DNA of 64,000 nucleotides from an uncultured Dehalococcoidia bacterium (GTDB lineage Bacteria > Chloroflexota > Dehalococcoidia > DSTF01 > JACRBR01): assembly GCA_964421985.1 (NCBI GenBank), contig CAYQZE010000018.1:583-64582 (forward strand), written 5' to 3'. The first letter of the stretch is position 1, and every line of letters begins with the position of its first letter. Under the pieces are notes generated by a model. It searched no databases, was not told where the DNA came from, and was given only the letters and a program-made list of their open reading frames with translations. The position numbers and the translations under genes were made by a program. Shown piece by piece: positions 7,045-60,788 of this stretch.

Positions 7045-8718
7045 TCACGGAGGGGTTGTCGCTCCCGGCGCGACATCCAATGAGACAAGCTGCCCTGCCC
7101 GGACGACGCCGTCGCTGACGATCAGCGTGACGGTGTAGGTGCCTTCGTTGGCGGGGGCCGTCCAGGTGACGGCGTCGCCGGTTTGCGGTGTGATGGTGCC
7201 GCTGGCGGTTGACCACGCCGGCGTCAGAAGCTCGCCGTTCGGACGTGATAGTGTGAGGCTGCCCGTGTCAGCCGCCTGTTGCACGGGCGCCCACACATCG
7301 GCTCCACCGCCCTGGGTCGAGACGTCATTGATGGTGACGCCACCGAGGCCGCGCCGCTGCGCCAGGTCCAGCCGGAAGGCCGCGCTGAAGGCGTTGGCAA
7401 CCCAGACCGTGCGCGTGCCGCCACGGCCGGGATACTTGAATGTGACGGAGCGCGCTCCATCGTCCCACGTGAGCCCGCTGGCATTCTCGCTCGCTGCCAG
7501 GTTCTGGGCGACCAACTGCACCTTCGACGACGGCGTCAGATCGCCGGCCGTCTTCACGCTGACTATGCTGGCGCGGCCGAGCGCGTCGTCGAGCGAGAGT
7601 GTGCGAAGGCCGTCGCCGCCCCGTTCGACGCTGAGCGAGCTGATACTGATCAGCACCTTCGTGCGGTCGACTTTGTCGATGATGTAGTCGAGCGCTGCCT
7701 CGGTGTTCTGGAAGTACAGTTCCTGATCCAGCCCCCCGGCCAGCTCGAGCGTATCGGCCGACGTACCGAGTTGCTGCCAGTCGTAGGCGCCGGACTGCAC
7801 GGTGCCGCCTTCCTTCGCGGGCATGGGCAGCGTCAGCGTGAGCGTGCGGCCGTCCGCGTGGAGGGCCTTGGCGACAAGCGCGATGAGGCTCGTGAACTGG
7901 ACGCGCAGCGTGGGGTTGACGCTGCGGTAATCGATGTCGATGCCGGCGAAGTTGCCTTGCTTCACCGCATCGGCGATCGCGGCGGCGTGTTTGGCCTGGA
8001 GGTCTGTGGAACGCAAGATGCTATCAACGACTTCGGGCGCCGGGGCGACGATCGCCGGGACGACCTTGTAGCCCGCGGGCGGGACGGCGGGCGGCTGCCC
8101 GACGATCGTGCCATCGCCGACGGGGATGAACACGATGGGATGGAGCGTCGTAATGACCGCTTCGGCGCGCTTGTCCAGAGTAGCGCCGGCGGACATCGAC
8201 CCGGCCACCTGCAGCGTCGCCTTGCTGCGACGAAGCACGACGACGTTGCCAGGCAGCGCGCCGACGTCGCCACGCACCGCCTCGCCGCTCGCGACGAGCG
8301 TCGCGTCCGAGAGCCGCTGCCACTTGCCATCGATGTAGGTGTACAGCGCGAGGCTCCGCTGCTCGGTCTGCTTTTCGCGCAGCGGCACGGTGATCTTGGC
8401 GGCTCCGCGCTGATCCTGCGGCGCCGCCAGGTCGAATAGCGCAGAGGCCGCGACCAGTCCCGCCGGCAACTTCGGCATGCCGCTGCGGACGGTCGACGTA
8501 TAGGCGTCTGCGTCGCCCGGGCCGCTGGGGATGCCGCCGGTCCCTCCTCCACGACTGAGAATCGAGACCGGGGGCAGCAGCAGCACGAGCAGCAGGATTG
8601 CAAGCCCGACGATCGCGCCGGCGACGTAGATGGCGGCACGGTCGGGCCCGGGCGGTTCGGGGCCGTCGGGTTTCGTCTTCAGGATGCGGTCGAAGGGTCC
8701 GCGTGGTTGCGTCGTCAT
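7045..8718 (-). CDS. membrane-anchored protein with a GH18-like (chitinase-like, probably non-catalytic) domain
   Basis: N-terminal TM helix (AIYVAGAIVGLAILLLVLLL). Central motif FAGIDIDYR resembles the GH18 DxxDxDxE region but lacks the catalytic Glu. Confidence 0.5.
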   Translation of the reverse strand: MTTQPRGPFDRILKTKPDGPEPPGPDRAAIYVAGAIVGLAILLLVLLLPPVSILSRGGGTGGIPSGPGDADAYTSTVRSGMPKLPAGLVAASALFDLAAPQDQRGAAKITVPLREKQTEQRSLALYTYIDGKWQRLSDATLVASGEAVRGDVGALPGNVVVLRRSKATLQVAGSMSAGATLDKRAEAVITTLHPIVFIPVGDGTIVGQPPAVPPAGYKVVPAIVAPAPEVVDSILRSTDLQAKHAAAIADAVKQGNFAGIDIDYRSVNPTLRVQFTSLIALVAKALHADGRTLTLTLPMPAKEGGTVQSGAYDWQQLGTSADTLELAGGLDQELYFQNTEAALDYIIDKVDRTKVLISISSLSVERGGDGLRTLSLDDALGRASIVSVKTAGDLTPSSKVQLVAQNLAASENASGLTWDDGARSVTFKYPGRGGTRTVWVANAFSAAFRLDLAQRRGLGGVTINDVSTQGGGADVWAPVQQAADTGSLTLSRPNGELLTPAWSTASGTITPQTGDAVTWTAPANEGTYTVTLIVSDGVVRAGQLVSLDVAPGATTPP

Positions 8719-8953
8719 CAGCTTCCGCCGCGCTCGCGAGGAGCGCGATCGGGTGTACCTCCATCAAGTCTCTTGCGCTGGCGGCTCGCGGGTCAGGTAC
8801 GGCCGCTGCGGAAGTGTGGCTACCGCGCGGTCGAAGATCAACATGCGCCCCTTGGAAGGCCGCCGCGCCCCTTCAGCCGGCACCAGGAGCCGACGATCCT
8901 CATGGGCAGAACGGTGGCCATGCCGGCGGCGCATGGCGCGGCGGCCGAGGGGT

Positions 8954-8982
8954 TTGGAAGCACTTTACAGGGGTGCGATCTC
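8954..8982 (+). promoter_or_regulatory. sigma70-like promoter for greA (TTTACA, 17-nt spacer, TATATT)
   Basis: -35 TTTACA at 8954-8959 and -10 TATATT at 8977-8982. About 110-nt leader to the greA ATG. Confidence 0.5.
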
Positions 8983-8994
8983 GCGGGTATATTG

Positions 8995-9025
8995 GCCGCG
9001 TCGCGACTGGGGCCCACCCGCCTCA
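8995..9025 (+). terminator. intrinsic-terminator-like hairpin plus T-tract inside the greA leader (possible attenuator / GraL-like small RNA)
   Basis: Stem ACTGGGG/CCTCAGT (7 bp, one G-U) with an 8-nt loop, followed by TTCTTTTGTT. Confidence 0.4.
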
Positions 9026-9098
9026 GTTCTTTTGTTCACGATCGCCACGAATGCCGGCCGAAGAATCGGCGCAACAGGGGAACCGAGGGGATGTTGCC

Positions 9099-9569
9099 AT
9101 GGTGGAGAAGCAGCAACCGATCACAAAGGCCGGCCTGAAGAAGTTCGAGAAGGAACTCGCGCGTCTGGAGAGCGTGGGCCGGCGTGAAGTGGCCGACAAG
9201 ATCCACCAGGCCCACGAGCTGGCCAGCACGCAGAACAACGCCGAATACGAAGACGCCAAGAACGAACAGGCGATGGTCGAGGGCCGCATCGCCCAGCTCC
9301 ACAGCCTGATCACCAACGCGACCATCATCGACGAGGCCGGCGCTCACAAATCCAAGCTTGTGACCCTGGGCAGTCATGTGAAGGTGCGTAGCGAGGGGAA
9401 GTCGCAGGAATACACCATCGTCGGACCCGCCGAAACGGACCCGAGCGAGGGGAAGATCAGCAACGAATCACCCGTGGGCCGCGCGCTGATCGGCAAGAAG
9501 CTGCACGACGAAGTGCAGGTGAGCGTGCCCAGGGGCATCATCACCATGAAGATCACGAAGATCAGTTAA
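9099..9569 (+). CDS. greA: transcription elongation factor GreA
   Basis: 157 aa, MVEKQQPITKAGLKKFEKELARLE...GKISNESPVGRALIGKK. GAGGGG ribosome-binding site 8 nt upstream of ATG 9099. Confidence 0.9.
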   Translation: MVEKQQPITKAGLKKFEKELARLESVGRREVADKIHQAHELASTQNNAEYEDAKNEQAMVEGRIAQLHSLITNATIIDEAGAHKSKLVTLGSHVKVRSEGKSQEYTIVGPAETDPSEGKISNESPVGRALIGKKLHDEVQVSVPRGIITMKITKIS

Positions 9570-9572
9570 CGG

Positions 9573-9593
9573 GTCGCCGGTCGCCGGTCGTCG
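9573..9593. repeat. tandem heptad triplet GTCGCCG-GTCGCCG-GTCGTCG directly after the greA stop
   Basis: Direct read of the sequence. It abuts the REP element at 9593. Confidence 0.7.
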
Positions 9594-9618
9594 TAGGGGC
9601 GGACCTGTGTGTCCGCCC
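9593..9618 (+). repeat. REP element (5'-GTAG + 8-bp GC-rich hairpin gggcggac/gtccgccc)
   Basis: GTAGGGGCGGACCTGTGTGTCCGCCC. Same architecture as the REPs at 41948, 57957 and 58259. Confidence 0.6.
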
Positions 9619-9699
9619 TGTCGGCTAGCGCCTTCCGCCGGCAGATCACTCCATGCTCCATCCTCCCCTTTCCAGCGCCCCGTCCTATACCCTTGCGCT

Positions 9700-11193
9700 A
9701 TGCCGGGCGAGGAAGAACTGATCCAACTCCGCAGGGAGAAATTGGCGCGCCTGCGCGCACGCGGCATCGATCCGTATCCAGCGCGGACGCCGCGAACACA
9801 TTCGGCGGCCGACGCGCTCGCGGCGTTTGGGCGCTGGGAGGCGGCCGACGGCGCGGTGCGCGGCGACGCGCCCACGGCGTGCGTCGCCGGGCGTATCACG
9901 GCGCTGCGCGATATGGGGAAGGCGTCGTTCCTCGACGTTCGCGATGGCACGGAGCGCATCCAGTGCTACCTGAAGAAGGATGTCATCGGAGAGGAGGCGT
10001 ACACCGGCATCGCTGATCTCGACCTCGGCGACTTCCTCGCGGTCAGCGGACCGCTGTTTCGCACCCGCACGCAGGAGATCACCGTCGAGGCGCGCTCGTA
10101 CACGGTGCTAGCGAAGGCGCTGCGCCCGCCTCCCGAAAAGTGGCACGGCATCGAGGACGTCGAGATCCGCTATCGCCAACGCTACCTCGACCTCATGTCG
10201 AACGCAGACGTGCGTGAGATCTTCCGCAAGCGCTCCGCGATCGTCGCGGCGATCCGCCGCTACCTGGACGCGCGGGGGTTCATGGAGGTGGAGACGCCCG
10301 TCCTGCAGGCCGAAGCTGGCGGTGCCGCAGCGACTCCGTTCGTCACGCACCACCGGGCTCTGGATCAAGACTTCTTCCTGCGTATCTCGCTGGAACTGCA
10401 CCTGAAGCGTCTCGTCATCGGCGGATTCGACCGCGTGTACGAGATGGGCCGCATCTTCCGCAACGAAGGCGTCTCGTGGAAGTACAACCCCGAGTTCACG
10501 ATGCTGGAGACCTACGAGGCGTACGCCGATTACAACGATGTTGCGCGCAGGATCGAAGACATGGTGTCGGGCGTCGCGCGAGACGCGGCAGGCGGCACGT
10601 CGGTCGTGTTCGGCGAGCATGTGTTGGACCTGGCGCCACCGTGGAGGCGGGTGACGATGCGCGACGCGTTGGTCGAGCATGCGGGCATCGACTTCGAGGA
10701 GTTCCGCACGCGTGACAAGCTGCTGGAGGAGTTGCAGCGGCGCAAGCTGGGCGACATCGACCCCGGGTGGTCGTGGAGCAAACTGCTCGATGAGGCAGTA
10801 TCGCACTACGTCGAGCCGAAGCTGATCCAGCCGACCTTCCTCCTCGATTACCCGAAGGAGATCTCGCCGCTGGCGAAGAGCAAGCCCGGCGCTCCCGGCA
10901 TTGTCGAGCGCTTCGAGGTGTTCTGCGCCGGGTTCGAGCTGGGCAACGCCTACTCCGAGCTGAACGACCCGACCGACCAGCGCGAGCGTTTCGAGACGCA
11001 GGCGCGACTCGCCGCTGCGGGACTCGAGGAAGTGGAGACGCTGGACGAAGACTTTCTCACCGCCCTGGAATACGGCATGCCGCCCACGGGGGGCTTTGGT
11101 CTCGGCATCGACCGGCTGGTGATGATCCTCACCGGCCAGACGTCGATCCGCGAAGTGATCCTCTTCCCGCAGCTGCGGAAGAAAGAGCAATAG
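9700..11193 (+). CDS. lysS: lysine--tRNA ligase (class II)
   Basis: 497 aa, class II aaRS motifs FMEVETPVLQ, GGFDRVYEMGRIFRNEG, ELGNAYSELNDP, GMPPTGGFGLGIDRL. Conserved greA-lysS arrangement. Confidence 0.95.
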   Translation: MPGEEELIQLRREKLARLRARGIDPYPARTPRTHSAADALAAFGRWEAADGAVRGDAPTACVAGRITALRDMGKASFLDVRDGTERIQCYLKKDVIGEEAYTGIADLDLGDFLAVSGPLFRTRTQEITVEARSYTVLAKALRPPPEKWHGIEDVEIRYRQRYLDLMSNADVREIFRKRSAIVAAIRRYLDARGFMEVETPVLQAEAGGAAATPFVTHHRALDQDFFLRISLELHLKRLVIGGFDRVYEMGRIFRNEGVSWKYNPEFTMLETYEAYADYNDVARRIEDMVSGVARDAAGGTSVVFGEHVLDLAPPWRRVTMRDALVEHAGIDFEEFRTRDKLLEELQRRKLGDIDPGWSWSKLLDEAVSHYVEPKLIQPTFLLDYPKEISPLAKSKPGAPGIVERFEVFCAGFELGNAYSELNDPTDQRERFETQARLAAAGLEEVETLDEDFLTALEYGMPPTGGFGLGIDRLVMILTGQTSIREVILFPQLRKKEQ

Positions 11194-11650: not shown

Positions 11651-11883
11651 TCCCCGCGACGCACAGGCGGTGGACTCTACGAGATTCACCGTCGTTCACG
11701 CGTAGCACCATCCACGGAGGTCTGCTCAATCCCGACGGGCGTGGGGGTCCAACACCCCTCCGTGAAATCCGTGAAATCCTTGTTTCCCCTGGTCGACTGC
11801 GGAATCCGCAGCCGGCACCGCTTGAGACTTCATGCCGATCGAGCCACAATATCCCTCACCACCCACAGTGGAAGGGACGCACG

Positions 11884-12594
11884 TTGGATTCGCAGCACTT
11901 CGACTTGCCGGTAGCCGTCACGCTTCGCTTGCAGTCACGCTCGGGCAACATCGACGTCCTCGCGGAGCCGCGCGACGATGTCGCTGTGGAGGGCGACGGG
12001 TTCAACACCAGTGAGGCGGACGGCGGGGCGACGCTGGAGGTCCACGCCGGGCGTGCGGGCTCGAAATCGCTCTCGGTGCGCTGCCCCGCCGGCACGGATA
12101 TCGTCATCGGCACGCACTCGGGCTCGGTGAACATGCGCGGCGAGTTCGGCTGCGTCTCCGTCACGACGATGAGCGGCGGCATCGACGTCGAGCGTGCCGA
12201 TGAGGCCGACCTGCGGACCGCTGCCGGAAGCGTCCGGCTAGGTTCCTGCAGCGGGCGTTGCCGGATGAACTCGATGAGCGGCAGCATCAGCGCCGGCTCC
12301 GTTGGCGCGGCGTCGGCAGGCACGATGTCCGGTTCGATCACGATCGAGCGGGTGGCCGGGCGCTTCAAAGCACGGAGCGTCAGCGGCGCCATCAAGGCCG
12401 CGTGCAATTGCGAGGGCGAGATCGCCGTCAAAACGGTGTCGGGCAAGGTGTATCTGGAATTGCCGAGCGGCACCGCGCTCGACACGCGCTTCAAGACGTT
12501 GTCAGGCAAGGTCCGCAACCCCTTCCCCGCGGGGAACGACTGCCGTCTCGAAGCGATGAGCATCTCCGGGTCGATCGAATTGGTCCAGACATGA
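11884..12594 (+). CDS. DUF4097-like putative adhesin / beta-helical repeat protein
   Basis: 236 aa with repeated SGSI/SGsV beta-helix-like units. TTG start with GGAAGGGA ribosome-binding site. The stop overlaps the next gene start (ATGA). Confidence 0.55.
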   Translation: MDSQHFDLPVAVTLRLQSRSGNIDVLAEPRDDVAVEGDGFNTSEADGGATLEVHAGRAGSKSLSVRCPAGTDIVIGTHSGSVNMRGEFGCVSVTTMSGGIDVERADEADLRTAAGSVRLGSCSGRCRMNSMSGSISAGSVGAASAGTMSGSITIERVAGRFKARSVSGAIKAACNCEGEIAVKTVSGKVYLELPSGTALDTRFKTLSGKVRNPFPAGNDCRLEAMSISGSIELVQT

Positions 12595-13133
12595 TGGCGA
12601 CCACGCCAGTCAGAGCGATGGTCGTGCGCGGCACGGTCATGTTCACCGATATCGTCGGCTTCACCGAATTCACGGCCCTGCGGGGCGATGACGAGGCGCT
12701 CACCCTGCTGGCGCTACAAGAAGAGATCGTGAACGAAGAGCTGGGCGACGACGCCCGGATCGTCAAGCACCTCGGAGACGGCCTGATGATCTGGTTCTCC
12801 GACCCTTGCGCGGCGATCGAGGCCGGGCTGCGCTTGCAGGAGCGGTTCGAGGAAGCCTCTTGGAGTCACGACACTCCGCTTTGGGTGCGCATCGGACTGC
12901 ACTCGGGTCAGCAGTCGCGCCGCGGCGACGATCTCATCGGTCACGACGTGAACGTAGCCGCGCGCATCGTCAACGTCGCGGACACGGGCGAAGTGCTGGC
13001 GTCGGAAGCGACGGTACGCAGCGCTGATGGCGGCGTGCCCAACGTCGCATTCCATCGCCTGGGCCCCGTCGTCATGAAGGGCATCCCCAACCCCATCAGC
13101 CTGTTCCGCGCCGAGCGCCGCGTCCCGGCGTAG
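12591..13133 (+). CDS. class III adenylate/guanylate cyclase (stand-alone catalytic domain)
   Basis: 180 aa. Motifs VMFTDIVGFTEF...LGDGLMIWF...VRIGLHSGQ...GHDVNVAARI. ATG at 12591 overlaps the DUF4097 stop. Confidence 0.8.
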   Translation: MMATTPVRAMVVRGTVMFTDIVGFTEFTALRGDDEALTLLALQEEIVNEELGDDARIVKHLGDGLMIWFSDPCAAIEAGLRLQERFEEASWSHDTPLWVRIGLHSGQQSRRGDDLIGHDVNVAARIVNVADTGEVLASEATVRSADGGVPNVAFHRLGPVVMKGIPNPISLFRAERRVPA

Positions 13134-13217: not shown

Positions 13218-13248
13218 AATTGATATATTCGGTATGGTTGATATAATT
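13218..13248 (+). promoter_or_regulatory. AT-rich sigma70 promoter (TTGATA, 16-nt spacer, TATAAT) with a TTGATATA direct repeat; candidate antitoxin operator
   Basis: -35 at 13220-13225 and -10 at 13242-13247. TTGATATA at 13220 and 13238. About 35% GC against a roughly 68% GC background. Confidence 0.6.
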
Positions 13249-13279: not shown

Positions 13280-13570
13280 GTGAAACGAACGCTCACAGCC
13301 ATGGAAGCGCGCCGCAAGTTCGGCGAGATGCTGGAGGACGTACGCCGAGGCGATGAGGTGATCATCGAGCGCGCCGGCAAAGTGATGGGCGTGCTGATCC
13401 CACCCGAGCGCTACAGCATGATCGAACGGGATCGCGAGCAGTTCCACCAGCTGGTGGCCGAAGCGCGTGAGCGGTTCGAAGGCGTGCCTGGCGAAGAGAT
13501 CGATCGCCTAGTCGACGAAGCCGTGCGCGACGCGCGCGGTAAGAGCCGCGCAAAGCGCCGCTCCGCCTAA
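13280..13570 (+). CDS. Phd/YefM-family antitoxin
   Basis: 96 aa. MKRTLTAMEARRKFGEMLEDVRRGDEVIIERAGKVMGVLIPPERY matches Phd/YefM. GTG start with GAGGTGA ribosome-binding site. Confidence 0.8.
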   Translation: MKRTLTAMEARRKFGEMLEDVRRGDEVIIERAGKVMGVLIPPERYSMIERDREQFHQLVAEARERFEGVPGEEIDRLVDEAVRDARGKSRAKRRSA

Positions 13571-13987
13571 GTGCGAATCGTCGTCGACACCAACGTCATC
13601 GTTAGCGGTGTGCTGCGCAGCGTCGGCTTCCCGGCTCGAGTCCTTGTCACGAACGATGCGGACGACATCCTCTGGATCACGTCCGAGCCACTCCTGGCTG
13701 AACTGCGACGCGTACTCGCGCGTCCGCACGTCAGGCGAAGACTGTTGTGGGACAATGCGCGGATCGTGTTGTTCGGCGATGTGCTTCGCCGAAGATCCAT
13801 GGTGGTCGTCCCCACTACTAGTATCGCAGTGTCGCGCGACCCGGACGACAACCGCGTACTCGAAGCCGCCGTCGCGGGCCAAGTGGACTACATCGTCACC
13901 GGCGATCGCGATCTGCTCGCACTCCGTTCGCACGCCGGCATACGGATGCTCACGCCGGCTCAGTTCGTAGAATTCCTTCCGGCGTAG
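13571..13987 (+). CDS. PIN-domain toxin (VapC-like)
   Basis: 138 aa. MRIVVDTNVIVSG...ILWITSEPLLAEL...VTGDRDLL, PIN acidic residues present. GTG start immediately after the antitoxin TAA. Confidence 0.8.
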   Translation: MRIVVDTNVIVSGVLRSVGFPARVLVTNDADDILWITSEPLLAELRRVLARPHVRRRLLWDNARIVLFGDVLRRRSMVVVPTTSIAVSRDPDDNRVLEAAVAGQVDYIVTGDRDLLALRSHAGIRMLTPAQFVEFLPA

Positions 13988-13992
13988 CCGTA

Positions 13993-14577
13993 TCAATCAC
14001 CGCTGCCGCAGCGCCGGACGTCGAACGGCGCGATGCCGATGACGCCCCGGCTGCGCGTGCAGCTGCGCGATTCCGTATCGACGATCACGTCGCCCTGTGG
14101 GCCCGTGCGAACGTCGAAGCGGTCGAGGTCGCCGTAGCTGTTGCCGAACGAGAACTTGCCGTCAATCCGCCAGACGGCGCGGCCGCTGTTGCAGTCTTCC
14201 ACGAAGGCACCCGCCGTATCGGGCAGCGGTTCCAGTGTGCCGATGCCTGCGGCGTCCTCGTAGTGCACGCGGCAGTCGCCGTTGAGCTCTTGCTGCCTCG
14301 ACGATCGGTCGTAGAGTGCTACAAATCCGCCGTCGGGGAGATGCACGAGAAAGAAGTGCTGCTGCTCAAACTCGTTGACCGAACCCGGCGGGAACGACGT
14401 GATGTTGCCGGCGATGAAGCCATGTGCGCGCTGGTCCGCCTCGTCGCCCTGGTTGAATATCGTGCCGACGGCGACGACGATGCCGGTGATCACCGCCGCG
14501 GCGATGACGACGCGCAACAGGCAGCCGCCCGCGCTGAACCCGCGTTTCGTTGCGGATGGCTGCGCTCCCGCGCTCAT
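13993..14577 (-). CDS. hypothetical membrane-anchored protein
   Basis: 194 aa with an N-terminal TM helix (LLRVVIAAAVITGIVVAVG). Start overlaps the stop of the upstream enoyl-CoA hydratase gene (ATGA). Confidence 0.5.
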   Translation of the reverse strand: MSAGAQPSATKRGFSAGGCLLRVVIAAAVITGIVVAVGTIFNQGDEADQRAHGFIAGNITSFPPGSVNEFEQQHFFLVHLPDGGFVALYDRSSRQQELNGDCRVHYEDAAGIGTLEPLPDTAGAFVEDCNSGRAVWRIDGKFSFGNSYGDLDRFDVRTGPQGDVIVDTESRSCTRSRGVIGIAPFDVRRCGSGD

Positions 14578-15305
14578 ACGGTGCGACTCGCCACGATGCG
14601 TCTCGCGACCGTCGCTTCGAGCCGCAGCGCGGGCTCCAGCGCCAGGTCCGCTCCGCGCACCATTGCCTCCTTGGCGGCCCGCAGCGCCCCCTCCGGCTGC
14701 GCCGCGAGCCGCCCGGCAACGTCCGTGGCTTCAGCACGGAGCCGCGTCCGCGGCACGACGCGCTGCACCAGTCCGGCTCGCAACGCCGTCATCGCGTCGA
14801 TCGGTTGGCCGCTGAGGATCATCTGACGGGCGAGGCCAGGCGGCACAGTGCGCGGCAGCATCTGCGTACCGCCCGCCGACGGGATGTAGCCGAGCGTGAC
14901 TTCAGGCAGCGCGAACGTTGCGTCCTCAGCGGCGATGCGGATGTCGCAGAACAGGCTCATCTCGCAGCCCGCGCCGAACGCGTAGCCATGCATCGCCGCC
15001 ACCAGCGGCTTCGTGCACGCGAGCATCGCGCCCCAGACGTCCCGATCCTGCCGCGCCCGCCGCGCTTCCACAAACGACGGCGCGCTGCCGAACTCGCTGA
15101 TATCCGCACCGGCCGAGAAAGCGCGTTCGCCCGCGCCCAGGAGCACCACGGCGCGGATCTCCGGATCGTCGCGGACGGCCGCCAGCGCCATCCACATCTC
15201 GTCCCGCACGGCCATGTTCATGGCGTTCAGCACGTGCGGGCGGTTCAGCGTCAGCCAGGCGACGCCGTTGGGAGCCTTCTCGAACAGCAAGGGCGATTCA
15301 CTCAC
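14574..15305 (-). CDS. enoyl-CoA hydratase/isomerase family protein
   Basis: Crotonase-fold motifs LNRPHVLNAMN...RAVVLLGAGERAFSAGADI...MHGYAFGAGCEMSLFCD. GTG start at 15303-15305. Confidence 0.8.
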   Translation of the reverse strand: MSESPLLFEKAPNGVAWLTLNRPHVLNAMNMAVRDEMWMALAAVRDDPEIRAVVLLGAGERAFSAGADISEFGSAPSFVEARRARQDRDVWGAMLACTKPLVAAMHGYAFGAGCEMSLFCDIRIAAEDATFALPEVTLGYIPSAGGTQMLPRTVPPGLARQMILSGQPIDAMTALRAGLVQRVVPRTRLRAEATDVAGRLAAQPEGALRAAKEAMVRGADLALEPALRLEATVARRIVASRTV

Positions 15306-15403
15306 GATCCTAAGGCTAACAGGGGCCGCGAAGGCGAAACAGCCACCGTCAGCGACGTGGCTTCGTTTGATCGCGCACGGCGCGCACCCTACGATGTACA
15401 GCG

Positions 15404-15718
15404 ATGACCATCGACGCCGCGACAGCAATCGCCGACCAGGAGGCCTTTCTCGTAGAGGTCGATGCGTGCCTGGACGAGATGCGGCCGTACGTGCATTCGC
15501 ACGGCGGCGAGTTGAATCTGGTCGAGTGGATCCCGGAGGAGGGCCGGCTTCGACTGCAGCTGGCGGGCTCCTGCCACGGCTGTCCGATGAGCATGGTGAC
15601 GATGAAGCTCGGGATCGAACGCATCGTGCAGGACCGCTTCCCGCAGGTAGCGATCGTCGAAGCGATCAAGGTGGACGACTACGACTACCCCGAACTGGGC
15701 ACGGATCCGGCGACGTAA
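15404..15718 (+). CDS. NifU-like (Nfu C-terminal domain) Fe-S assembly protein
   Basis: 104 aa. GGELNLVEW...LQLAGSCHGCPMS matches the Nfu CxxC domain. Confidence 0.7.
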   Translation: MTIDAATAIADQEAFLVEVDACLDEMRPYVHSHGGELNLVEWIPEEGRLRLQLAGSCHGCPMSMVTMKLGIERIVQDRFPQVAIVEAIKVDDYDYPELGTDPAT

Positions 15719-17726: not shown

Positions 17727-17788
17727 TTGACATCCGTCGGCCCGGGCGCTACGATCTCGTCCGGATGTTAGTGAGTGGCCACTCACTA
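17727..17788 (+). promoter_or_regulatory. promoter (TTGACA, 17-nt spacer, TACGAT) followed by a 20-bp perfect palindrome TAGTGAGTGGCCACTCACTA; candidate TetR operator
   Basis: -35 at 17727-17732 and -10 at 17750-17755. Palindrome at 17769-17788, immediately downstream of the predicted start site. Confidence 0.6.
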
Positions 17789-17807
17789 CGCGTTCCGGAG
17801 CGATACG

Positions 17808-18482
17808 GTGGTCCAGCAGCGGGCACGCAGACTTCCGGCCGACAAGCGCAAGCGCCAGATCATCGAGAGCGCGCGCGGCGTCTTCGCGTCGCAGTCGTAC
17901 GCGCATGTCGGCACCGCCGACCTCGCGCGCGCCGCCGGCATCTCCGAACCGGCGCTCTATCGCCATTTCGCCGGCAAGAAGGAGCTGTTCGTCGCGACGA
18001 TCCGCGCGACAGGGCCGCGACTGCTGAAGATCTGGGAAGACATCTCCGTCGACTACGAAGACCCGATCGAGACGCTGTGGGCGATCGGCGTCTACTACTA
18101 CGACCACCTCGAGTCGCACTCCGCCAACATGAAGCTGCAGTTTCGCGCCCTGTCGGAAGCGGACGACCCGGAGATCCAGTCGGCGCTGCACGATAACTTC
18201 GAAGCGTTCGTCGAATTCGTCGCCGACACGCTGGAGGAAGGCAAAGCGCGCGGCGTCGTCAAGCGCGACGTCGACACGCGGCTCGTCGCCTGGCAGTTCC
18301 TCGGCATCGGCATGACGCTGGACCTGATGAACATGCTGGGGTTCAAGGACGAGATGGATCACGCGCGCGCCGACCTGTGGGGGCGCGTCTACCTGGAGAC
18401 GGTGCGCCGGAAGGACAGCCGCCGCCCGCAATACGCGACGGCCGAGGGCACCCCCCTGCGCGCCCCCGGCGGCAGTGGATAA
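17808..18482 (+). CDS. TetR/AcrR-family transcriptional regulator
   Basis: HTH region RKRQIIESARGVFASQSYAHVGTADLARAAGISEPALYRHF. GTG 17808 with GGAG ribosome-binding site preferred over GTG 17775, which lies inside the operator palindrome. Confidence 0.8.
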   Translation: MVQQRARRLPADKRKRQIIESARGVFASQSYAHVGTADLARAAGISEPALYRHFAGKKELFVATIRATGPRLLKIWEDISVDYEDPIETLWAIGVYYYDHLESHSANMKLQFRALSEADDPEIQSALHDNFEAFVEFVADTLEEGKARGVVKRDVDTRLVAWQFLGIGMTLDLMNMLGFKDEMDHARADLWGRVYLETVRRKDSRRPQYATAEGTPLRAPGGSG

Positions 18483-18537
18483 ACAATGGGCTGCGGCCCG
18501 CGGGGAATCGATCTGGTTCTAAGTTCTTGGGGATCGC

Positions 18538-19755
18538 ATGGACTTTCACGACACGCCAACCGAAGCAGCATTTCGCGCTGAAGTGCGCGCGTTCATCGAA
18601 AATGAGTGCCCGCCCGGCATCAAGCGCCGGGGCTTCCGCGCGGCGTTCGGCGGCGGCGGCTGGGACGACATCCGCATGTCGCGCGAGGAGTACTTCGCGA
18701 CGAACGGCGGTTGGGTGAAGAAGCTGGCAGAGCACGGCTGGATCGCGCCGGCCTGGCCGAAAGAGTACGGCGGCGCCGGGATGACCGTTATGGAGCAGTT
18801 CATCTTCAGCCAGGAGATGTCGCTCGCGGGCGCGCCGCGCGGCGGCAACTTCGGCATCGGCACCGGCTGGGCCGGCCCGACGATCATCCTCCACGGCACC
18901 GAGGAACAGCGCAAGCGGTATCTGCCGGGCATCGTGCAGGGCGACGAGGTCTGGTGCCAGGGCTTCAGCGAGCCGGGCGCCGGCAGCGACCTTGCATCGG
19001 TGCAGACGCGCGCGATCAAGGACGGCGACGACTACGTTGTCAACGGACAGAAGATCTGGACATCGGGCGCGCACGTCGCGAAGTACATGATCCTGCTCGC
19101 TCGCAGCGACCCCGACGCGCCCAAGCACAAGGGCATCAGCTACTTCATCGTCGATATGAAGTCGCCCGGCATCACCATCCAGCCGCTGGTGAACATGGCG
19201 AACAACCACGACTTCAACGAAGTCTTCTTCGACAACGTGCGCGTGCCGGCGAAGAACATGATCGGCGAGGAGAACCGCGGCTGGTACGTCGGCACGACGA
19301 CACTCGACTTCGAGCGCTCCGGTATCGCCACGAGCATCTCGCATTCGCTCATGGTGCAGGATCTCGCGACCTTTGTGCGCGAGAACAAAGGCCAGGGATT
19401 CATCTCGGAGAGCAAGAGCGTAAAGAACGAGATCGCCGACCGGATGATCGAAGCGGGCGTCGAGGAGATGCTGTCGTACCAGGTGATCTCGATGCAGAAC
19501 CGCGGCCTCGTGCCGAACAAGGAGTCATCGATCGCCAAGCTGTTCTCGTCGGAGCTGGACGTGCGGATCGCCGGCACCGCCATGCGCGTGCTGGGCCCCT
19601 ACGGCCAGCTGTGCACCGGCAGCGAGCACGCCCCGGCGGGCGGACGCGTCGAAAGCACATACCTGTACGCGACGACGAGCACAGTCGGTGGCGGAACATC
19701 GGAAATCCAAAGAAATATCATCGCGTCGCGCGGGCTGGGTTTACCCCGCGCGTAG
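18538..19755 (+). CDS. acyl-CoA dehydrogenase, paralog 1
   Basis: 405 aa. GWIAPAWPKEYGGAG, WCQGFSEPGAGSDLAS, C-terminal GGTSEIQRNIIASRGLGLPR. About 60-70% similarity to paralogs 2-5. Confidence 0.9.
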   Translation: MDFHDTPTEAAFRAEVRAFIENECPPGIKRRGFRAAFGGGGWDDIRMSREEYFATNGGWVKKLAEHGWIAPAWPKEYGGAGMTVMEQFIFSQEMSLAGAPRGGNFGIGTGWAGPTIILHGTEEQRKRYLPGIVQGDEVWCQGFSEPGAGSDLASVQTRAIKDGDDYVVNGQKIWTSGAHVAKYMILLARSDPDAPKHKGISYFIVDMKSPGITIQPLVNMANNHDFNEVFFDNVRVPAKNMIGEENRGWYVGTTTLDFERSGIATSISHSLMVQDLATFVRENKGQGFISESKSVKNEIADRMIEAGVEEMLSYQVISMQNRGLVPNKESSIAKLFSSELDVRIAGTAMRVLGPYGQLCTGSEHAPAGGRVESTYLYATTSTVGGGTSEIQRNIIASRGLGLPRA

Positions 19756-19771
19756 AAACATGAACGAGCGT

Positions 19772-19793
19772 GTAGCGCGGACTTCAGTCCGCG
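19772..19793 (+). repeat. REP element type 2 (GTAG + cgcggac/gtccgcg hairpin)
   Basis: GTAGCGCGGACTTCAGTCCGCG. An inverted degenerate copy of the palindrome core lies at 19815-19830. Confidence 0.55.
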
Positions 19794-19892
19794 TGAGGTG
19801 GGAAGCGGCGAACGCGCAGACTGAAGTCCACGCCACAGAATCGCCGAACAGACGACTGACGGCCGACGACCAATTCGAGAGAGGATCAACCG

Positions 19893-21074
19893 ATGAACTT
19901 TGCTGACAGCGCGGAAGAGGCGACGTTTCGGCAGGAGGTGCGCGACTTCGTCAACGCCGAGATCAAGTCCGACTTGAAGACCGGCGATCTGGTGGAGTCG
20001 GGCATGTATCGCGGCGCCTTCGAGCGCCTGAAGGGCGTGCGCGGCAAGCTCGCGAAGCGCGGCTGGATCGCCCCGGCGTGGCCGAAGGAGTACGGCGGTG
20101 CCAGTCTCTCCGTGATGCAGCAGTTCATCATGAACGAGGAGTTCGCCGAAAGCCGTGTGCCGCCCGTCGGCGGCATGGGCGTCTCGATGGTCGGACCGAC
20201 GATCATCACCCACGGCAACGAGGACCAGCGGAAGGAGCACCTGAGCCGCATCCTCTCGGGTGACGTGCAGTGGTGCCAGGGCTTCAGCGAGCCCGGATCG
20301 GGCTCCGACCTCGCGTCGCTGCAGACACGCGCGGTGAAGGACGGCGACGACTACGTGATCAACGGTCAGAAGATCTGGACATCCGGCGCTTCCTACGCGC
20401 ACTGGATGTTCATGATGGCGAGGACCGACCCTGATGCGCCGAAGCACAAGGGCATCAGCTACTTCCTCGTCGACATGAAGTCGCCTGGCGTCGAGGTGCG
20501 GCCGCTGACGAACCTCGCGAATCAGAACATGTTCAATGAGGTGTTCTTCCAGGACGTGCGCGTGCCGGCGAAGAACATCGTTGGCGAGGTGAACCGCGGT
20601 TGGTACGTCGGCACCACGACGCTCGACTTCGAGCGATCGAGCATCGGCAGCGCCGTCGGCCTCAAGCTGCAGCTCGATGAACTGGTGAAGTACGCGAAGC
20701 AAAACGAGAAGACAGGCAGCAGCCGCACCGGCTATCTCTCGTCAGTCAAGTCGGAGCTCGCCGACCGCTACGTCGAAGCGACCGTCGCGAAAATGATGTC
20801 CTATCGCGTCGTCACGATGCAGGCCAAGGGCCTGATCCCCAACCATGAAGCATCGATGACCAAACTCTTCGCTTCGGAGTTGACGCAGCGCATCGCGCGC
20901 ACGGGCGTGAAGGTGCTGGGTCTGTACGGGCAGCTCTACGGCGAAGGCGCACCGATGCGTGGCCGTTACGAGAGCTCGTACATGACGTCCCTCGCATCGA
21001 CGATCGCCGGCGGCACCAGCGAGATCCAGCGAAACATCATCGCGACCAGAGGGCTCGGACTACCGCGGGACTGA
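19893..21074 (+). CDS. acyl-CoA dehydrogenase, paralog 2
   Basis: 393 aa with the same motif set as paralog 1. Confidence 0.9.
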   Translation: MNFADSAEEATFRQEVRDFVNAEIKSDLKTGDLVESGMYRGAFERLKGVRGKLAKRGWIAPAWPKEYGGASLSVMQQFIMNEEFAESRVPPVGGMGVSMVGPTIITHGNEDQRKEHLSRILSGDVQWCQGFSEPGSGSDLASLQTRAVKDGDDYVINGQKIWTSGASYAHWMFMMARTDPDAPKHKGISYFLVDMKSPGVEVRPLTNLANQNMFNEVFFQDVRVPAKNIVGEVNRGWYVGTTTLDFERSSIGSAVGLKLQLDELVKYAKQNEKTGSSRTGYLSSVKSELADRYVEATVAKMMSYRVVTMQAKGLIPNHEASMTKLFASELTQRIARTGVKVLGLYGQLYGEGAPMRGRYESSYMTSLASTIAGGTSEIQRNIIATRGLGLPRD

Positions 21075-21088
21075 CGAGATGGTCGCCT

Positions 21089-21116
21089 GGTGAGTAGTGA
21101 CTAGTGATTGGTGGGT
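21089..21116. repeat. heptad array GGTGAGT-AGTGACT-AGTGATT-GGTGGGT; left terminal inverted repeat of four-helix-bundle cassette 1
   Basis: Four tandem 7-mers with consensus RGTGAYT. Inverted relative to the array at 21499-21526. Confidence 0.6.
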
Positions 21117-21127
21117 TGTCCCATCGC

Positions 21128-21451
21128 ATGGAGAAGGGATACGAGGATCTAGAGGTGTACCGCCGCGGACTCGCCTTGCAGCGACCGGTTCATGCGCTCG
21201 TCCTCCGATTTCCCGACTATGAGAAATACGACCTCGCGAGCCAAATGCGCCGGGCATGCAAGTCGATTCCGACCAATATTGTCGAGGGCTACGCGCGACG
21301 GCGATCTCCAAAGGAATTTTGCAGCTATCTCGCGCTGTCCGTAGGCTCAGCCAACGAGATGGAAGTACATTTCAAGATTGCGAAGGAGCTCGACTACATC
21401 AACGAAGCGGAGTTCGCACACTTCATCGAGGAATATCAGATCATCGGCTAA
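21128..21451 (+). CDS. four-helix-bundle protein (TIGR02436 / 23S rRNA intervening-sequence protein family), probably C-terminally truncated
   Basis: MEKGYEDLEVYRRGLAL...DLASQMRRACKSIPTNIVEGYARRR...SANEMEVHFKIA. TAA at 21449; in-frame continuation (QLTRLIQYWRT) is homologous to the C-terminus of the paralog at 23982-24389. Confidence 0.7.
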   Translation: MEKGYEDLEVYRRGLALQRPVHALVLRFPDYEKYDLASQMRRACKSIPTNIVEGYARRRSPKEFCSYLALSVGSANEMEVHFKIAKELDYINEAEFAHFIEEYQIIG

Positions 21452-21498
21452 CAACTAACGCGGCTTATCCAGTACTGGCGGACAAAAGGCGACGAGTC

Positions 21499-21526
21499 GG
21501 TCACCAGTCACCAATCACCAATCACG
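21499..21526. repeat. heptad array GGTCACC-AGTCACC-AATCACC-AATCACG; right terminal inverted repeat of cassette 1
   Basis: Reverse complement reads CGTGATT-GGTGATT-GGTGACT-GGTGACC. Followed by GAGGAGACCAGACG and the ATG of ACAD paralog 3. Confidence 0.6.
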
Positions 21527-21539
21527 AGGAGACCAGACG

Positions 21540-22721
21540 ATGGACTTTAAGGACACGCCGACCGAAGCAGCATTTCGCAACGACGTGCGCACGTTCATTC
21601 AGGCCGAGGCGCCGAAGCGGAAGCTGGGCCAATCGGTCGAGGAAGCGATGGTGTCCGGCTGGCAGGCGAACCAGGAGTGGTTCCACAAGCTGGGCAGGAA
21701 GGGCTGGATCGCCCCGGCCTGGCCGAAGGAGTACGGCGGCGCCAGCATGACCACCGTCGAGCAGTTCATCTTCAACGAGGAGATGGCGCTCAACAAGGCG
21801 CCGCGCCCCCTGCACCAGATCATCGGGCTGGGCATGGCCGGCCCGACGCTCATCGTCCACGGCACAGAGGAGCAGCGGAAGAAGTACCTTCCGGGCATGT
21901 TGACCGGCGACGACGTCTGGTGCCAGGGCTACAGCGAGCCGGGCGCAGGCTCCGACCTCGCATCCTTGCAGACCCGCGCCGTGCGCGAAGGCGACGACTA
22001 CGTCGTGAACGGCCAGAAGATCTGGACGACGCTGGCGCACATCGCCCGCTACATGATCCTGCTCACGCGCACCGATCCGGATGCGCCGAAGCATCGCGGC
22101 ATCACGTACTTCATCCTCGATATGAAGTCGCCCGGCGTCGAAGTGCGGCCGCTCTACAACCTCGGCAACAGTCACGAGTTCAACGAGGTGTTCTTCGACA
22201 ACGTGCGCATCCCGAAGGACAACGTCATCGGCGAGGAGAACCGCGGCTGGTACTCCGCCGTCACCACGCTCGACTTCGAGCGCTCCAGCATCGGCAGCGC
22301 GACGGGCATGAAGCAGCACGTCGAAGAGCTGATCGACTACGCGACAGAGCACGCAGGCGACCCCACGAGCACGCTCCGGACGAACCCGATGCTGCGCTAC
22401 GAGCTTGCGGACCGCATGGTCGAGACCGAGGTCGCACGGATGCTGTCGTATCGCGTGGCCTCGATGCAAGCGCGCGGGCTGATCCCGAACTACGAGGCGT
22501 CGTCGCTGAAACTGTTCTCGACGGAGCTGAACCAGCGCATCGCGAAGTCGGCGATCCATATCCTGGGGCTCTACGGTCAACTGCGCGGCGACAGCGCGCC
22601 GACGAAGGGCCGCTGGCTCGGCCTGTTCTTGCGCTCGGCGGCGTATCCCCTCGAAGGCGGCACGTCCGAGATCCAGCGCAACATCCTCGCCCAGCGCGGC
22701 CTCGGCCTCCCGCGAGACTAA
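21540..22721 (+). CDS. acyl-CoA dehydrogenase, paralog 3
   Basis: 393 aa. MDFKDTPTEAAFRNDVRTFI...GWIAPAWPKEYGGAS...GGTSEIQRNILAQRGLGLPRD. Confidence 0.9.
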   Translation: MDFKDTPTEAAFRNDVRTFIQAEAPKRKLGQSVEEAMVSGWQANQEWFHKLGRKGWIAPAWPKEYGGASMTTVEQFIFNEEMALNKAPRPLHQIIGLGMAGPTLIVHGTEEQRKKYLPGMLTGDDVWCQGYSEPGAGSDLASLQTRAVREGDDYVVNGQKIWTTLAHIARYMILLTRTDPDAPKHRGITYFILDMKSPGVEVRPLYNLGNSHEFNEVFFDNVRIPKDNVIGEENRGWYSAVTTLDFERSSIGSATGMKQHVEELIDYATEHAGDPTSTLRTNPMLRYELADRMVETEVARMLSYRVASMQARGLIPNYEASSLKLFSTELNQRIAKSAIHILGLYGQLRGDSAPTKGRWLGLFLRSAAYPLEGGTSEIQRNILAQRGLGLPRD

Positions 22722-22749
22722 CGCCCGTGCCGGTGGATGGGAGTCCACG

Positions 22750-23931
22750 ATGCGATTCAAGTTCACGCCAGCACAAGAAGCATTCCGCACTGAGGTCAAC
22801 ACCTTCCTCAAGGAGACGCTGCCGCCCGACTGGGAGGGCGCGGATAACGCGATCGACGACGAGTCGTACGAGTTCGGGCGCGAGTTCCTGAAGAAGCTAG
22901 CGCCCAAACGCTGGATCGCGCCGGCATGGCCGACGGAGTACGGCGGGCTTGCGCTCTCGCACTGGGACCAGGTCATCTACAACGAGGCGATGGGCTACGC
23001 GCGCGCACCGATCATCAACGCGGCCGCGACGGGCTACCTCGGCCCGACCGTCATTCTCTACGGCAGCGACGAGCAGAAGGCGCAGCACCTGCCAGGCATC
23101 ACCTCCGGTGAAGTGGTGTGGTGCCAGGGGTACAGCGAGCCGAACTCCGGATCCGACCTCGCCTCACTGCAGACGCGCGCGGTGATGGACGGTGACGACT
23201 TTATCCTCAACGGGCAGAAGATCTGGACTAGCCAGGCGCACTACGCCGACTGGATGTTCGTCCTGGCGCGCACCGACCCCGACGCACCGAAGCATCGCGG
23301 CATCAGCTACTTCCTCATGGATATGAAGACGCCCGGCATAAGCGTGCGGCCGCTGGTCAATATGGCGAATGGTGCAGGCTTCAACGAAGTCTTCTTCGAG
23401 AACGTACGCATCCCGAAGTCCGGCCTGTTGGGAGAACTCAACCGCGGTTGGTACATCGCGACCACGACGCTCGACTTCGAGCGCTCGTCGCTGACCGGGA
23501 CGGCGCAGTCGCAACGCTCGCTCGAAGACCTGACGCGATTCGCGAAGACGGAGCGCCAGGCGGGCACCGGCGCCCGGCTCTGGGACAGGCCGGCCGTGCG
23601 GCACACCCTCGCCGACCTGTGGGTGTCGCTCGACGTGACGCGCATGCTGTCGTACCGCGTCGTCAGCATGCAGGCGCGCGGTTTGGTGCCCAACTACGAA
23701 GCGTCGATCATCAAGGTCTTCAATACGGACTATGTGCAGCGACAGGCGCGCGTCGGCCTCGGCCTCATGGGCCTCTACGGCGGACTGTGGGGCGAAGGCC
23801 CTTGGTCGAAGCTGCGCGGCCGCTTCGCGAAGTCCTACGTCGCCACGGTCGGCGCGGCGATCGCCGGCGGCACGACGGAGATCCAGCGCAACATCATCGC
23901 CCAGCGCGGTTTGGGCTTGCCGAGGCAGTAA
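22750..23931 (+). CDS. acyl-CoA dehydrogenase, paralog 4
   Basis: 393 aa. WIAPAWPTEYGG...WCQGYSEPNSGSDLAS...GGTTEIQRNIIAQRGLGLPRQ. Confidence 0.9.
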   Translation: MRFKFTPAQEAFRTEVNTFLKETLPPDWEGADNAIDDESYEFGREFLKKLAPKRWIAPAWPTEYGGLALSHWDQVIYNEAMGYARAPIINAAATGYLGPTVILYGSDEQKAQHLPGITSGEVVWCQGYSEPNSGSDLASLQTRAVMDGDDFILNGQKIWTSQAHYADWMFVLARTDPDAPKHRGISYFLMDMKTPGISVRPLVNMANGAGFNEVFFENVRIPKSGLLGELNRGWYIATTTLDFERSSLTGTAQSQRSLEDLTRFAKTERQAGTGARLWDRPAVRHTLADLWVSLDVTRMLSYRVVSMQARGLVPNYEASIIKVFNTDYVQRQARVGLGLMGLYGGLWGEGPWSKLRGRFAKSYVATVGAAIAGGTTEIQRNIIAQRGLGLPRQ

Positions 23932-23942
23932 TGGTGGCCGAG

Positions 23943-23963
23943 AGGTCAGAAGTCAGAGGTCGG
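23943..23963. repeat. heptad triplet AGGTCAG-AAGTCAG-AGGTCGG; left terminal inverted repeat of four-helix-bundle cassette 2
   Basis: Matches 18 of 21 positions of the reverse complement of the triplet at 24347-24367. Confidence 0.6.
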
Positions 23964-23981
23964 AATGTGACAAGCACGAGC

Positions 23982-24389
23982 GTGATCAAAAGCTTTCGTG
24001 ACCTTCAGGTGTACCAGCGCGGTATGTCGTTGCTGAAGCCGGTGCATGAGCTGACGCGCACGCTGCCAGACTACGAGAAGTACGATCTTGCGAATCAACT
24101 TCGTCGCGCCTGCAAGTCAGTGCCCGCGAACATCGCGGAAGGTTACGCGAAGCGGCGCTCAGCGAAGGAGTTTCGCGCCTACCTGACCAACGCGATGGGC
24201 TCCGCGACCGAGATGGAAGTGCATCTGGAAATCGCACGCGAACTGGAATACATTTCGATCGAAGAGGCCGCGCAGCTAATCGACCAGTACCAGATCCTGG
24301 CGAGACAGCTGTACCGGCTCATCGAGAAGTGGCGCACGCTCGAGATCCGACCTCCGACTTCCGATCTCTCAGCCACCGGAACGGATTGA
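23982..24389 (+). CDS. four-helix-bundle protein (TIGR02436 / 23S-IVS protein family), full-length paralog
   Basis: GTG start gives IKSFRDLQVYQRGMSLL..., aligning with MEKGYEDLEVYRRG of paralog 1. C-terminus QILARQLYRLIEKWRT. TGA overlaps the ATG of ACAD5 (TGATG). Alternative in-frame starts at 23931 and 23967. Confidence 0.7.
   Translation: MIKSFRDLQVYQRGMSLLKPVHELTRTLPDYEKYDLANQLRRACKSVPANIAEGYAKRRSAKEFRAYLTNAMGSATEMEVHLEIARELEYISIEEAAQLIDQYQILARQLYRLIEKWRTLEIRPPTSDLSATGTD
24347..24367. repeat. heptad triplet CCGACCT-CCGACTT-CCGATCT within the 3' end of four-helix-bundle gene 2; right terminal inverted repeat of cassette 2
   Basis: Reverse complement reads AGATCGG-AAGTCGG-AGGTCGG. The 7-nt periodicity is out of codon phase, so this is a DNA-level repeat. 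Confidence 0.6.
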
Positions 24390-25570: not shown

Positions 25571-25664
25571 GGCTGGAAGTGGAAGCAGGAAACGGGATGC
25601 GAGAAGCGAGATGCGCGAACCGAAAGCGATCACGAATCGTGCTGTGCGAGCGGGCGGGTCATCG

Positions 25665-26051: not shown

Positions 26052-26139
26052 CCGGGTAGGCAACAACAAGGGATGACTTCCGCCTAAGGCGGATCAATTG
26101 CATAATCTGGATCCGAAGAAAGGAAAGGGGAACGCACAC

Positions 26140-58242: not shown

Positions 58243-58258
58243 CGCGATCGCCCGTTCC

Positions 58259-58282
58259 GGGCGCAGCCCGCTGCGCCCCTAC
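58259..58282 (-). repeat. REP element type 1 (inverted orientation) just upstream of the RAYT start
   Basis: Reverse complement reads GTAGGGGCGCAGCGGGCTGCGCCC. Confidence 0.65.
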
Positions 58283-58316
58283 AGTGCCTCCGCGATCGTT
58301 CAGGAAGCTGCCCCAT

Positions 58317-60688: not shown

Positions 60689-60709
60689 AAGAACTCTCCT
60701 CGTGCGGCT

Positions 60710-60734: not shown

Positions 60735-60788
60735 CTGGGGGTGAGGTGCCCCGGCCTGCACCGACGTGTCGCCTTCCCAACAATCCGC

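Follow-up and report, generated by a model that had tools for sequence, protein, structure and literature searches.

Conserved linkage of a Toastrack (DUF4097) gene and a minimal class III cyclase gene suggests a two-protein signaling unit in Chloroflexota and Acidimicrobiia-type bacteria

Here, we describe a gene pair in a stretch of 64,000 nt from an uncultured Dehalococcoidia bacterium (GenBank assembly GCA_964421985.1, contig CAYQZE010000018.1; the whole stretch is referred to as the window). In this pair, a gene for a Toastrack (DUF4097) protein overlaps a downstream gene for a minimal class III cyclase (Table 1), and the same pair with a tight junction is present in ~50 independent loci from three subfamilies and two phyla. 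The recurrence of the pair and its tight junction in ~50 loci exceeds chance, and we hold it highly probable that the two proteins are functional partners. With moderate confidence, we also favor the idea that the Toastrack protein is a trans-acting regulator or scaffold of a homodimeric adenylyl cyclase, and that the two make up a dedicated two-protein cyclic AMP (cAMP) module.

The conservation of the pair is the evidence that carries this proposal. A scan of GTDB representatives (one genome per species), queried with the Toastrack alignment, returned 33 loci, and in all 30 Chloroflexota loci among them the cyclase gene is immediately downstream of the Toastrack gene. The Toastrack identities are 52-81% in 26 of these loci and ~35% in four; the loci of the closest relatives (~80% amino-acid identity) come from soil or groundwater metagenome-assembled genomes (MAGs) labelled Chloroflexota/Dehalococcoidia. 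The reverse look-up with cyclase relatives on long contigs found a DUF4097 gene immediately upstream in three of three cases, and ~30 further pairs of Toastrack and cyclase clusters have parent contigs of equal size across the two homologue lists. For a second Chloroflexota subfamily, a look-up revealed a 190-aa cyclase directly downstream of the Toastrack protein. Similarly, a search from a distant Chloroflexota Toastrack protein uncovered an Acidimicrobiia-type group (the label is that of NCBI) with Toastrack proteins of 221-224 aa; in both look-ups made in this group, a small cyclase of 182-208 aa is directly downstream, and a metagenome scan of this subfamily gave 18 loci, with the cyclase present in 14 of the 15 that have sufficient downstream sequence. 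The exception (L059, 68-778) consists of a DnaN beta-clamp-like N-terminal stretch followed by Toastrack residues 55-213 and has no cyclase downstream; the likeness to DnaN was judged by eye from the translation, with no profile search, and the locus is probably a chimeric contig. The initial annotation had proposed a two-protein signaling unit that would stand or fall with the conservation of the adjacency, and the adjacency holds in the Chloroflexota loci, in the second subfamily and in the Acidimicrobiia-type subfamily.

The tight junction is itself a conserved property of the pair. In the window, the start codon of the cyclase gene (ATG, 12591-12593) and the stop codon of the Toastrack gene (TGA, 12592-12594) together form a 4-nt ATGA overlap, as had been proposed from the outset; the junction reads gtccagacATGAtggcg / CAGACATGATGGCG, and position 12591 is the first in-frame ATG of the cyclase open reading frame (ORF). 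Among 55 junctions, i.e. those of the window and 54 related loci, with a few duplicate records of one contig included in the count, 29 have a 4-nt NTGA overlap, 13 a 1-nt overlap and five a possible 10-nt overlap, while a further seven have gaps of 2, 13 or 42 nt.

While the pair persists, its neighbors vary. In the window and its closest relatives, genes for lysyl-tRNA synthetase (LysRS) and a DinB-family protein are upstream, and a toxin-antitoxin pair and genes for a 194-aa membrane protein and an enoyl-CoA hydratase are downstream. Elsewhere, the two sides are occupied by an ABC transporter and PhyH (locus L036), valyl-tRNA synthetase (ValRS) and ribosomal protein L28 (L038), ValRS and an alpha/beta-hydrolase (L040), CNNM-CorC and HAD on one side with MFS and SDR on the other (L032 and L044), UvrD_C_2 and a histidine phosphatase (L041), or MacB-FtsX and CLIPPER (L042). 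Thus, the pairing is not mere synteny, and the two genes have been passed on together, by descent or by transfer. By sequence, the cyclases linked to Toastrack genes belong to a single family, with 45-57% identity from one subfamily to another, as compared to 28-38% identity to Ma1120 of Mycobacterium avium and to a second, LipJ-like cyclase domain in the window. Because the identity between subfamilies is ~50% for the cyclase and ~30-38% for the Toastrack protein, the cyclase evolves more slowly. A few long-read MAGs have one of the two genes split by a single-base indel, i.e. the cyclase gene at 6705-7314 in L016/L001 and at 6696-7331 in L018, and the Toastrack gene at 6258-7004 in L039. The broken copies are confined to long-read assemblies, and L038, a near-identical contig from the sample of L039, has the intact gene; therefore, the splits in L016, L018 and L039 are probably assembly errors.

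The pair seems to be a transcription unit of just two genes, because it has a promoter-like element of its own and a distinct, strong promoter-like site (11/12 matches, extended -10) lies 5' of the downstream Phd/YefM-PIN pair. The 233-bp gap that follows the DinB-family gene, 5' of the Toastrack gene, holds the element TTGAGA-N17-CACAAT, which we suggest acts as a promoter. Of 34 related loci, 28 carry the pattern TTGAnn-N16-19-nACAAT at a distance of 47-74 nt before the Toastrack start codon, and its single occurrence on either strand of the window is this very site. In the form TTGAGx-N17-19-(C/G)ACAAT, the element accompanies the pair within the subfamily of the window; it was not found in four loci of the second subfamily (L029-L032) or in L028 and L038. 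GGAGG-like strings are present in related loci at the place equivalent to that of the Shine-Dalgarno-like sequence of the window. The sequence is 66% GC, and the GC content at third codon positions is 0.86 in the plus frame of the Toastrack gene, arguing that this frame is coding and that a long antisense ORF is spurious. No Rfam family was found in the window at the gathering threshold, which leaves the pair without a known upstream riboswitch. A perfect tandem 9-mer (CGTGAAATC x2, 11761-11778, plus strand) is located in the intergenic region ~45 nt upstream of the promoter-like element and could be a regulator binding site.

The cyclase is predicted to be catalytically competent, of the adenylyl type and with cAMP as its product. 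The protein matches PF00211 (Guanylate_cyc) over profile positions 10-172 of 183 (E 1.9e-13, 50.9 bits, cut-off 21.9). Its catalytic set comprises the metal-binding residues D20 and D63, the adenine-specifying residues K59 and D114, the transition-state residues N121 and R125 and the phosphate-binding residue K163, which were assigned from the motifs FTDIVGFT, VKxLGDG, GDDLIGHDVNVAARI and MKGI and checked by alignment to Ma1120. In this alignment, K59, D114 and N121 correspond to K101, D157 and A164 of Ma1120, in which K101 and D157 are the substrate residues and position 164 is an Ala instead of the usual Asn (PMC4215837). All seven positions show little or no variation across the 120 closest cyclase homologues, and 44 distinct Toastrack-linked cyclases differ at none of them but position 163, which is K or R. 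Catalytic residues had been considered as possibly missing at the outset, but the two Asp residues that bind metal, the Lys and Asp that specify adenine and the Asn and Arg of the transition state are complete in the cyclase and do not vary among these 44 relatives. Searches for solved relatives by sequence gave Ma1120 (2.3e-19), the cyclase homology domain (CHD) of Rv1900c (1.8e-13) and Rv1264 (3.6e-12), and the AlphaFold2 model of the cyclase (predicted local distance difference test score, pLDDT, 81.4) aligns in Foldseek with Ma1120, the cyclase domain of Rv1900c and Rv1264 with template-modeling (TM) scores of 0.70-0.86 and E ~1e-14. The description of the cyclase as minimal and stand-alone stands, since it has 180 aa, Pfam detects no second domain in it, and among solved structures the small Ma1120 is nearest to it.

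The cyclase of the window is similar to the class IIIc mycobacterial enzymes Ma1120, Rv1900c (LipJ) and Rv1264, the latter two by their CHD, in fold, size class and the K/D adenine pair. Like the cyclase of the window, Ma1120, a homodimeric class III enzyme, has little beyond the catalytic domain. The cyclase of the window is only 28-33% identical to Ma1120 and has kept the transition-state Asn where Ma1120 has Ala164. By contrast to Rv1264 and Rv1900c, in which regulatory domains are fused in cis, the candidate regulator in the window is a separate protein, the gene of which is predicted to be translationally coupled to that of the cyclase. Among NCBIfam models, the small cyclase matches LipJ best, through the cyclase part (1e-20); however, with 73.9 bits against a cut-off of 800 for LipJ (NF058673), only the cyclase part aligns, and the small cyclase lacks the hydrolase domain of LipJ-type fusions. 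The window also encodes such a fusion: a second cyclase domain joined to an alpha/beta-hydrolase had been noted in the initial annotation, and Pfam confirmed it, on the minus strand. The small cyclase is 30-38% identical to this LipJ-like cyclase domain. In L015, two LipJ-like fusions (7855-9198 and 9415-10779) are immediately downstream of the pair, and in L009 one (690-2030) precedes it by ~4 kb. In L001, L002 and L040, the pair has stand-alone alpha/beta-hydrolase genes as neighbors. Cyclase genes may be recurrently associated with hydrolases.

The Toastrack protein matches PF13349 (Toastrack DUF4097; E 2e-14, 54 bits, cut-off 22.9), in agreement with the original assignment of the ORF to DUF4097 and with the repeated SG(S/K)(I/V) units seen in its translation. 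Its AlphaFold2 model, based on 120 homologues, is entirely beta (pLDDT 95.7, predicted TM score 0.90). In Foldseek, the model matches 3lyc, 4qrk, 3pet, 3jx8, 3ljy and 4opw, i.e. JCSG structures named "putative adhesin/pectinase", with probability 1.00 and with TM scores of 0.47-0.60 for most of these PDB relatives and 0.25 for 4qrk. 4QRK and 4OPW are the structures that were used in defining the Toastrack domain (PMC11237479). A PDB sequence search with the Toastrack profile gave a DARPin match at E 0.04 as its sole result, which we regard as spurious; the relatives came from the fold search. Hydrophobic segments are absent from the protein (maximum Kyte-Doolittle hydropathy over 19 residues, 0.81), its N-terminus is polar, and, based on hydropathy, it is predicted to be soluble and cytoplasmic, without signal peptide or membrane segment, which agrees with the published prediction that Toastrack domains are intracellular (PMC11237479). 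The idea of an adhesin-like fold was abandoned, because the fold is that of Toastrack, the "putative adhesin" names of the PDB relatives are structural-genomics guesses and the protein is predicted to be cytoplasmic. There are 218 close homologues at E<=1e-5, and in all of the 120 listed the Toastrack domain is stand-alone; the profile search gave 25,109 clusters (50% identity) at E<=1e-3 and 172 at E<=1e-30. The conserved residues are mainly Gly and Ser in turns together with R66, D72, D109, R111, R127 and D219. A redox or metal site based on Cys was considered and is unsupported, as C67, C122 and C126 are Cys in just 61-71% of diverse family members; C122 and C126 are on one long strand of the model.

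Members of the same Pfam family with the same fold are known from the Psp/Lia envelope-stress systems (LiaG, the C-terminal domain of LiaF, YvlB, VraT and LiaX). Toastrack domains have been proposed to form flat docking platforms for signaling enzymes, e.g. in the regulation of the kinase LiaS by LiaF (PMC11237479). Unlike the Psp/Lia proteins, the Toastrack protein of the window has no membrane anchor and no Psp/Lia-type neighbors, and its partner is a nucleotide cyclase; also, it scores 59.3 bits against the LiaG equivalog NF049997, the cut-off of which is 285. PspA, PspC, LiaI-LiaF-TM and LiaRS-type two-component systems were not found among the annotated neighbors in the eight looked-up contexts and the map of the window, and in the contexts examined neither a PadR/HAAS pair nor a membrane partner accompanies the pair. 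The sole histidine kinase in the window is encoded 35 kb from the pair. The contexts listed in the published Toastrack survey are PspC, LiaI-LiaF-TM, two-component systems, HAAS/PadR, ABC transporters and sigma factors, and the word "cyclase" does not occur in it (PMC11237479).

Based on these comparisons, we suggest the following model. Because the stop and start codons overlap, translation of the two genes should be coupled, and the two proteins would be produced together. With every catalytic residue on a single chain, and given the established class III mechanism, the bare cyclase domain would form a head-to-tail homodimer with two active sites and work as such. Minimal class III domains need dimerization for activity, and structural work on Rv1264 and Ma1120 has reportedly made the way in which two catalytic domains meet a known regulatory principle in mycobacterial enzymes. 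The Toastrack protein would supply regulation in trans to a cyclase that has no regulatory domain of its own. For this, it would bind the acidic cyclase (mean isoelectric point (pI) 4.7, net charge about -10.6) by one of its two extended beta-sheet faces; such binding is proposed on the basis of the docking precedent of LiaF and LiaS (PMC11237479) and of the low pI of the cyclase compared to that of its partner, which has a mean of 6.2 in the subfamily of the window and of 8.2 in the third subfamily. The bound Toastrack protein would respond to a signal or partner by controlling the formation or the geometry of the cyclase dimer and, hence, the output of cAMP. In its most specific form, which we put forward tentatively as somewhat short of an even chance, the Toastrack protein is an allosteric regulatory subunit that gates cyclase dimerization in trans to turn a cytoplasmic or sub-membrane cue into cAMP. 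Putative parts of this model are the contact between the two proteins, the sense of the control (inhibition or activation) and the input signal.

Several observations weigh against a regulatory role of the Toastrack protein. It shows neither a recognizable ligand site nor a sensor motif. Among the best 150 of the 172 clusters at 50% identity, which all have ~110-330 aa, there is no Toastrack-cyclase fusion, so that the usual "Rosetta stone" support is absent. Three remote DUF4097 proteins of Actinomycetota in the GTDB scan (25-27% identity, ~317 aa) have no cyclase neighbor, and the linkage is therefore specific to the subfamily and not a property of the Toastrack fold at large. Finally, conserved operon membership fits a Toastrack protein that acts downstream of cAMP equally well.

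This last point leads to the alternative that survives best, although we consider it unlikely: the order of action could be reversed, with a cyclase that is constitutive or controlled by its substrate and a Toastrack protein that is a cAMP-binding or cAMP-recruited effector or a scaffold that passes the signal on. Strict co-inheritance is silent on which protein acts first, and the conserved Toastrack residues R66, R111, R127, D109 and D219 could make a phosphate or nucleotide site; moreover, the Pfam map of the window has no gene for a cyclic nucleotide monophosphate (cNMP)-binding or CRP-type protein, so that a local receptor is otherwise unaccounted for. However, cAMP receptors are normally encoded at other genome sites, no known cyclic-nucleotide-binding fold or motif was detected in the Toastrack protein, the only Pfam match of which is DUF4097, and the published Toastrack contexts indicate protein docking rather than nucleotide binding (PMC11237479).

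Pycsar is also a two-gene module with a cyclase of the class III family, and the pair could be a similar anti-phage module in which infection prompts the cyclase to produce a cyclic nucleotide and the Toastrack protein serves as toxic effector. The compact two-gene layout, the varied genomic contexts in two phyla, a toxin-antitoxin pair (Phd/YefM-PIN) that adjoins in the window and several relatives, and a weak match of the cyclase to the PADLOC profile PycC (1.2e-09, 35.8 bits) would fit such a module. Nevertheless, we regard it as highly improbable, because the PycC match scores lower than that to the general Pfam cyclase profile and is explained by common class III descent, and the Toastrack protein has no PADLOC match. 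Pycsar effectors, which are said to have been described by Tal et al. in 2021, reportedly join a cNMP-binding domain to a TIR or a membrane-spanning domain, and no cNMP-binding, TIR or membrane effector is present here. Also, the adenine-specifying K/D pair is invariant, the neighbors are mainly housekeeping and metabolic genes (LysRS, ValRS, L28 and enoyl-CoA hydratase), and the order of partner first and cyclase second is the reverse of the usual Pycsar gene order.

Least probable of all is that the two genes share an operon without any functional link, or that the cyclase is a non-catalytic pseudo-enzyme: ATGA overlaps by themselves are frequent in bacterial operons, also between unrelated neighboring genes, and one gene is broken by a frameshift in some long-read MAGs (the cyclase gene in L016 and L018, the Toastrack gene in L039), but the adjacency outlasts the complete turnover of the flanks and, over two phyla, a drop of the Toastrack identity to ~30-38%, none of the catalytic residues is lost, the breaks are, as mentioned, probably assembly errors, and the present sample contradicts a pairing at merely the expected frequency.

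A conserved third partner was considered among the downstream genes and rejected. Among the related loci, 13 have the gene for the 194-aa membrane-anchored protein downstream of the pair and 15 have that for the hydratase (four of these with only ~35% identity), i.e. in 13-15 loci of one subfamily, and both are absent in the other contexts. The Phd/YefM-PIN pair adjoins the Toastrack-cyclase pair in seven related loci (L001, L003, L004, L007, L016, L021 and L022).

Table 1. Features of the gene pair and its surroundings in the window
Feature	Position	Strand	Basis or remark
Promoter-like element TTGAGA-N17-CACAAT	11822-11850	+	62 nt 5' of Toastrack start codon; 9/12 consensus matches (scan)
Shine-Dalgarno-like sequence GGAAGGGA	11870-11877	+	6 nt 5' of TTG start; read off sequence
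Toastrack (DUF4097) gene; predicted soluble, stand-alone protein of 236 aa, TTG start	11884-12594	+	Pfam PF13349
ATGA start/stop overlap; putative translational coupling junction	12591-12594	+	Read off sequence
Minimal class III cyclase gene, predicted adenylyl type; 180 aa, catalytic domain only, ATG start	12591-13133	+	Pfam PF00211
Strong sigma-70-like promoter motif TTGATA-16-TATAAT	13220-13247	+	11/12 matches, TG extension
Phd/YefM antitoxin gene	13280-13570	+	
PIN_3 toxin gene	13571-13987	+	Directly 3' of Phd/YefM
Gene for 194-aa protein with N-terminal hydrophobic segment	13993-14577	-	No Pfam match; 4-nt overlap with hydratase gene
Enoyl-CoA hydratase gene	14574-15428	-	
LipJ-type fusion gene, Abhydrolase_1 + Guanylate_cyc, 448 aa	28697-30043	-	Pfam

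Further along the window, region 17775-27264 (plus strand) has a TetR gene (17775-18482) followed by six tandem acyl-CoA dehydrogenase paralogues (at 18538, 19893, 21540, 22750, 24329 and 26098), with an ORF of 146 aa without Pfam match amid the array (25611-26051) and a markedly positive AT skew (0.09-0.17). A pair of genes for a TetR protein and a cytochrome P450 is at 31151-33033 (plus strand), a gene for a LarC-type nickel-insertion protein at 34155-35339 (plus strand) and a gene for a CAP-domain protein (cysteine-rich secretory protein family) at 50264-51031 (plus strand). The cluster at 53736-61880 contains a gene for a 965-aa SMC/AAA_23-type ATPase (53736-56633, minus strand) and, beside it, three large ORFs without Pfam match (56669-57700, plus strand; 58317-60266 and 60789-61880, minus strand); a gene for a SET-domain protein is at 61963-62484.

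Bacterial class III cyclases are usually modular, with sensor domains fused to the catalytic domain, and, to our knowledge, the control of "naked" class III catalytic domains is largely obscure. Toastrack/DUF4097 proteins are implicated in antibiotic-stress signaling via LiaF, VraT and LiaX, while their molecular action is not established. The literature that we searched, which included few subscription journals, contains no link between DUF4097/Toastrack proteins and cyclases, with one review mentioning each term once and incidentally. Thus, our findings point to an apparently undescribed two-protein signaling unit in which a class III cyclase has a candidate regulator that is supplied in trans by a Toastrack protein. 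Were the Toastrack protein to have no effect on the cyclase, a robust but unexplained gene linkage in poorly studied soil Chloroflexota and Acidimicrobiia would remain. Because both proteins are predicted to be soluble and one has a simple cAMP read-out, the pair would make Toastrack function directly assayable. If the model is correct, trans-acting regulation would join the repertoire of class III cyclases, and the pair would provide the first bacterial class III cyclase with its sensor as a separate, obligately co-inherited polypeptide, and the widespread Toastrack fold, which reaches as far as human FAM185A, would gain its first defined biochemical activity.

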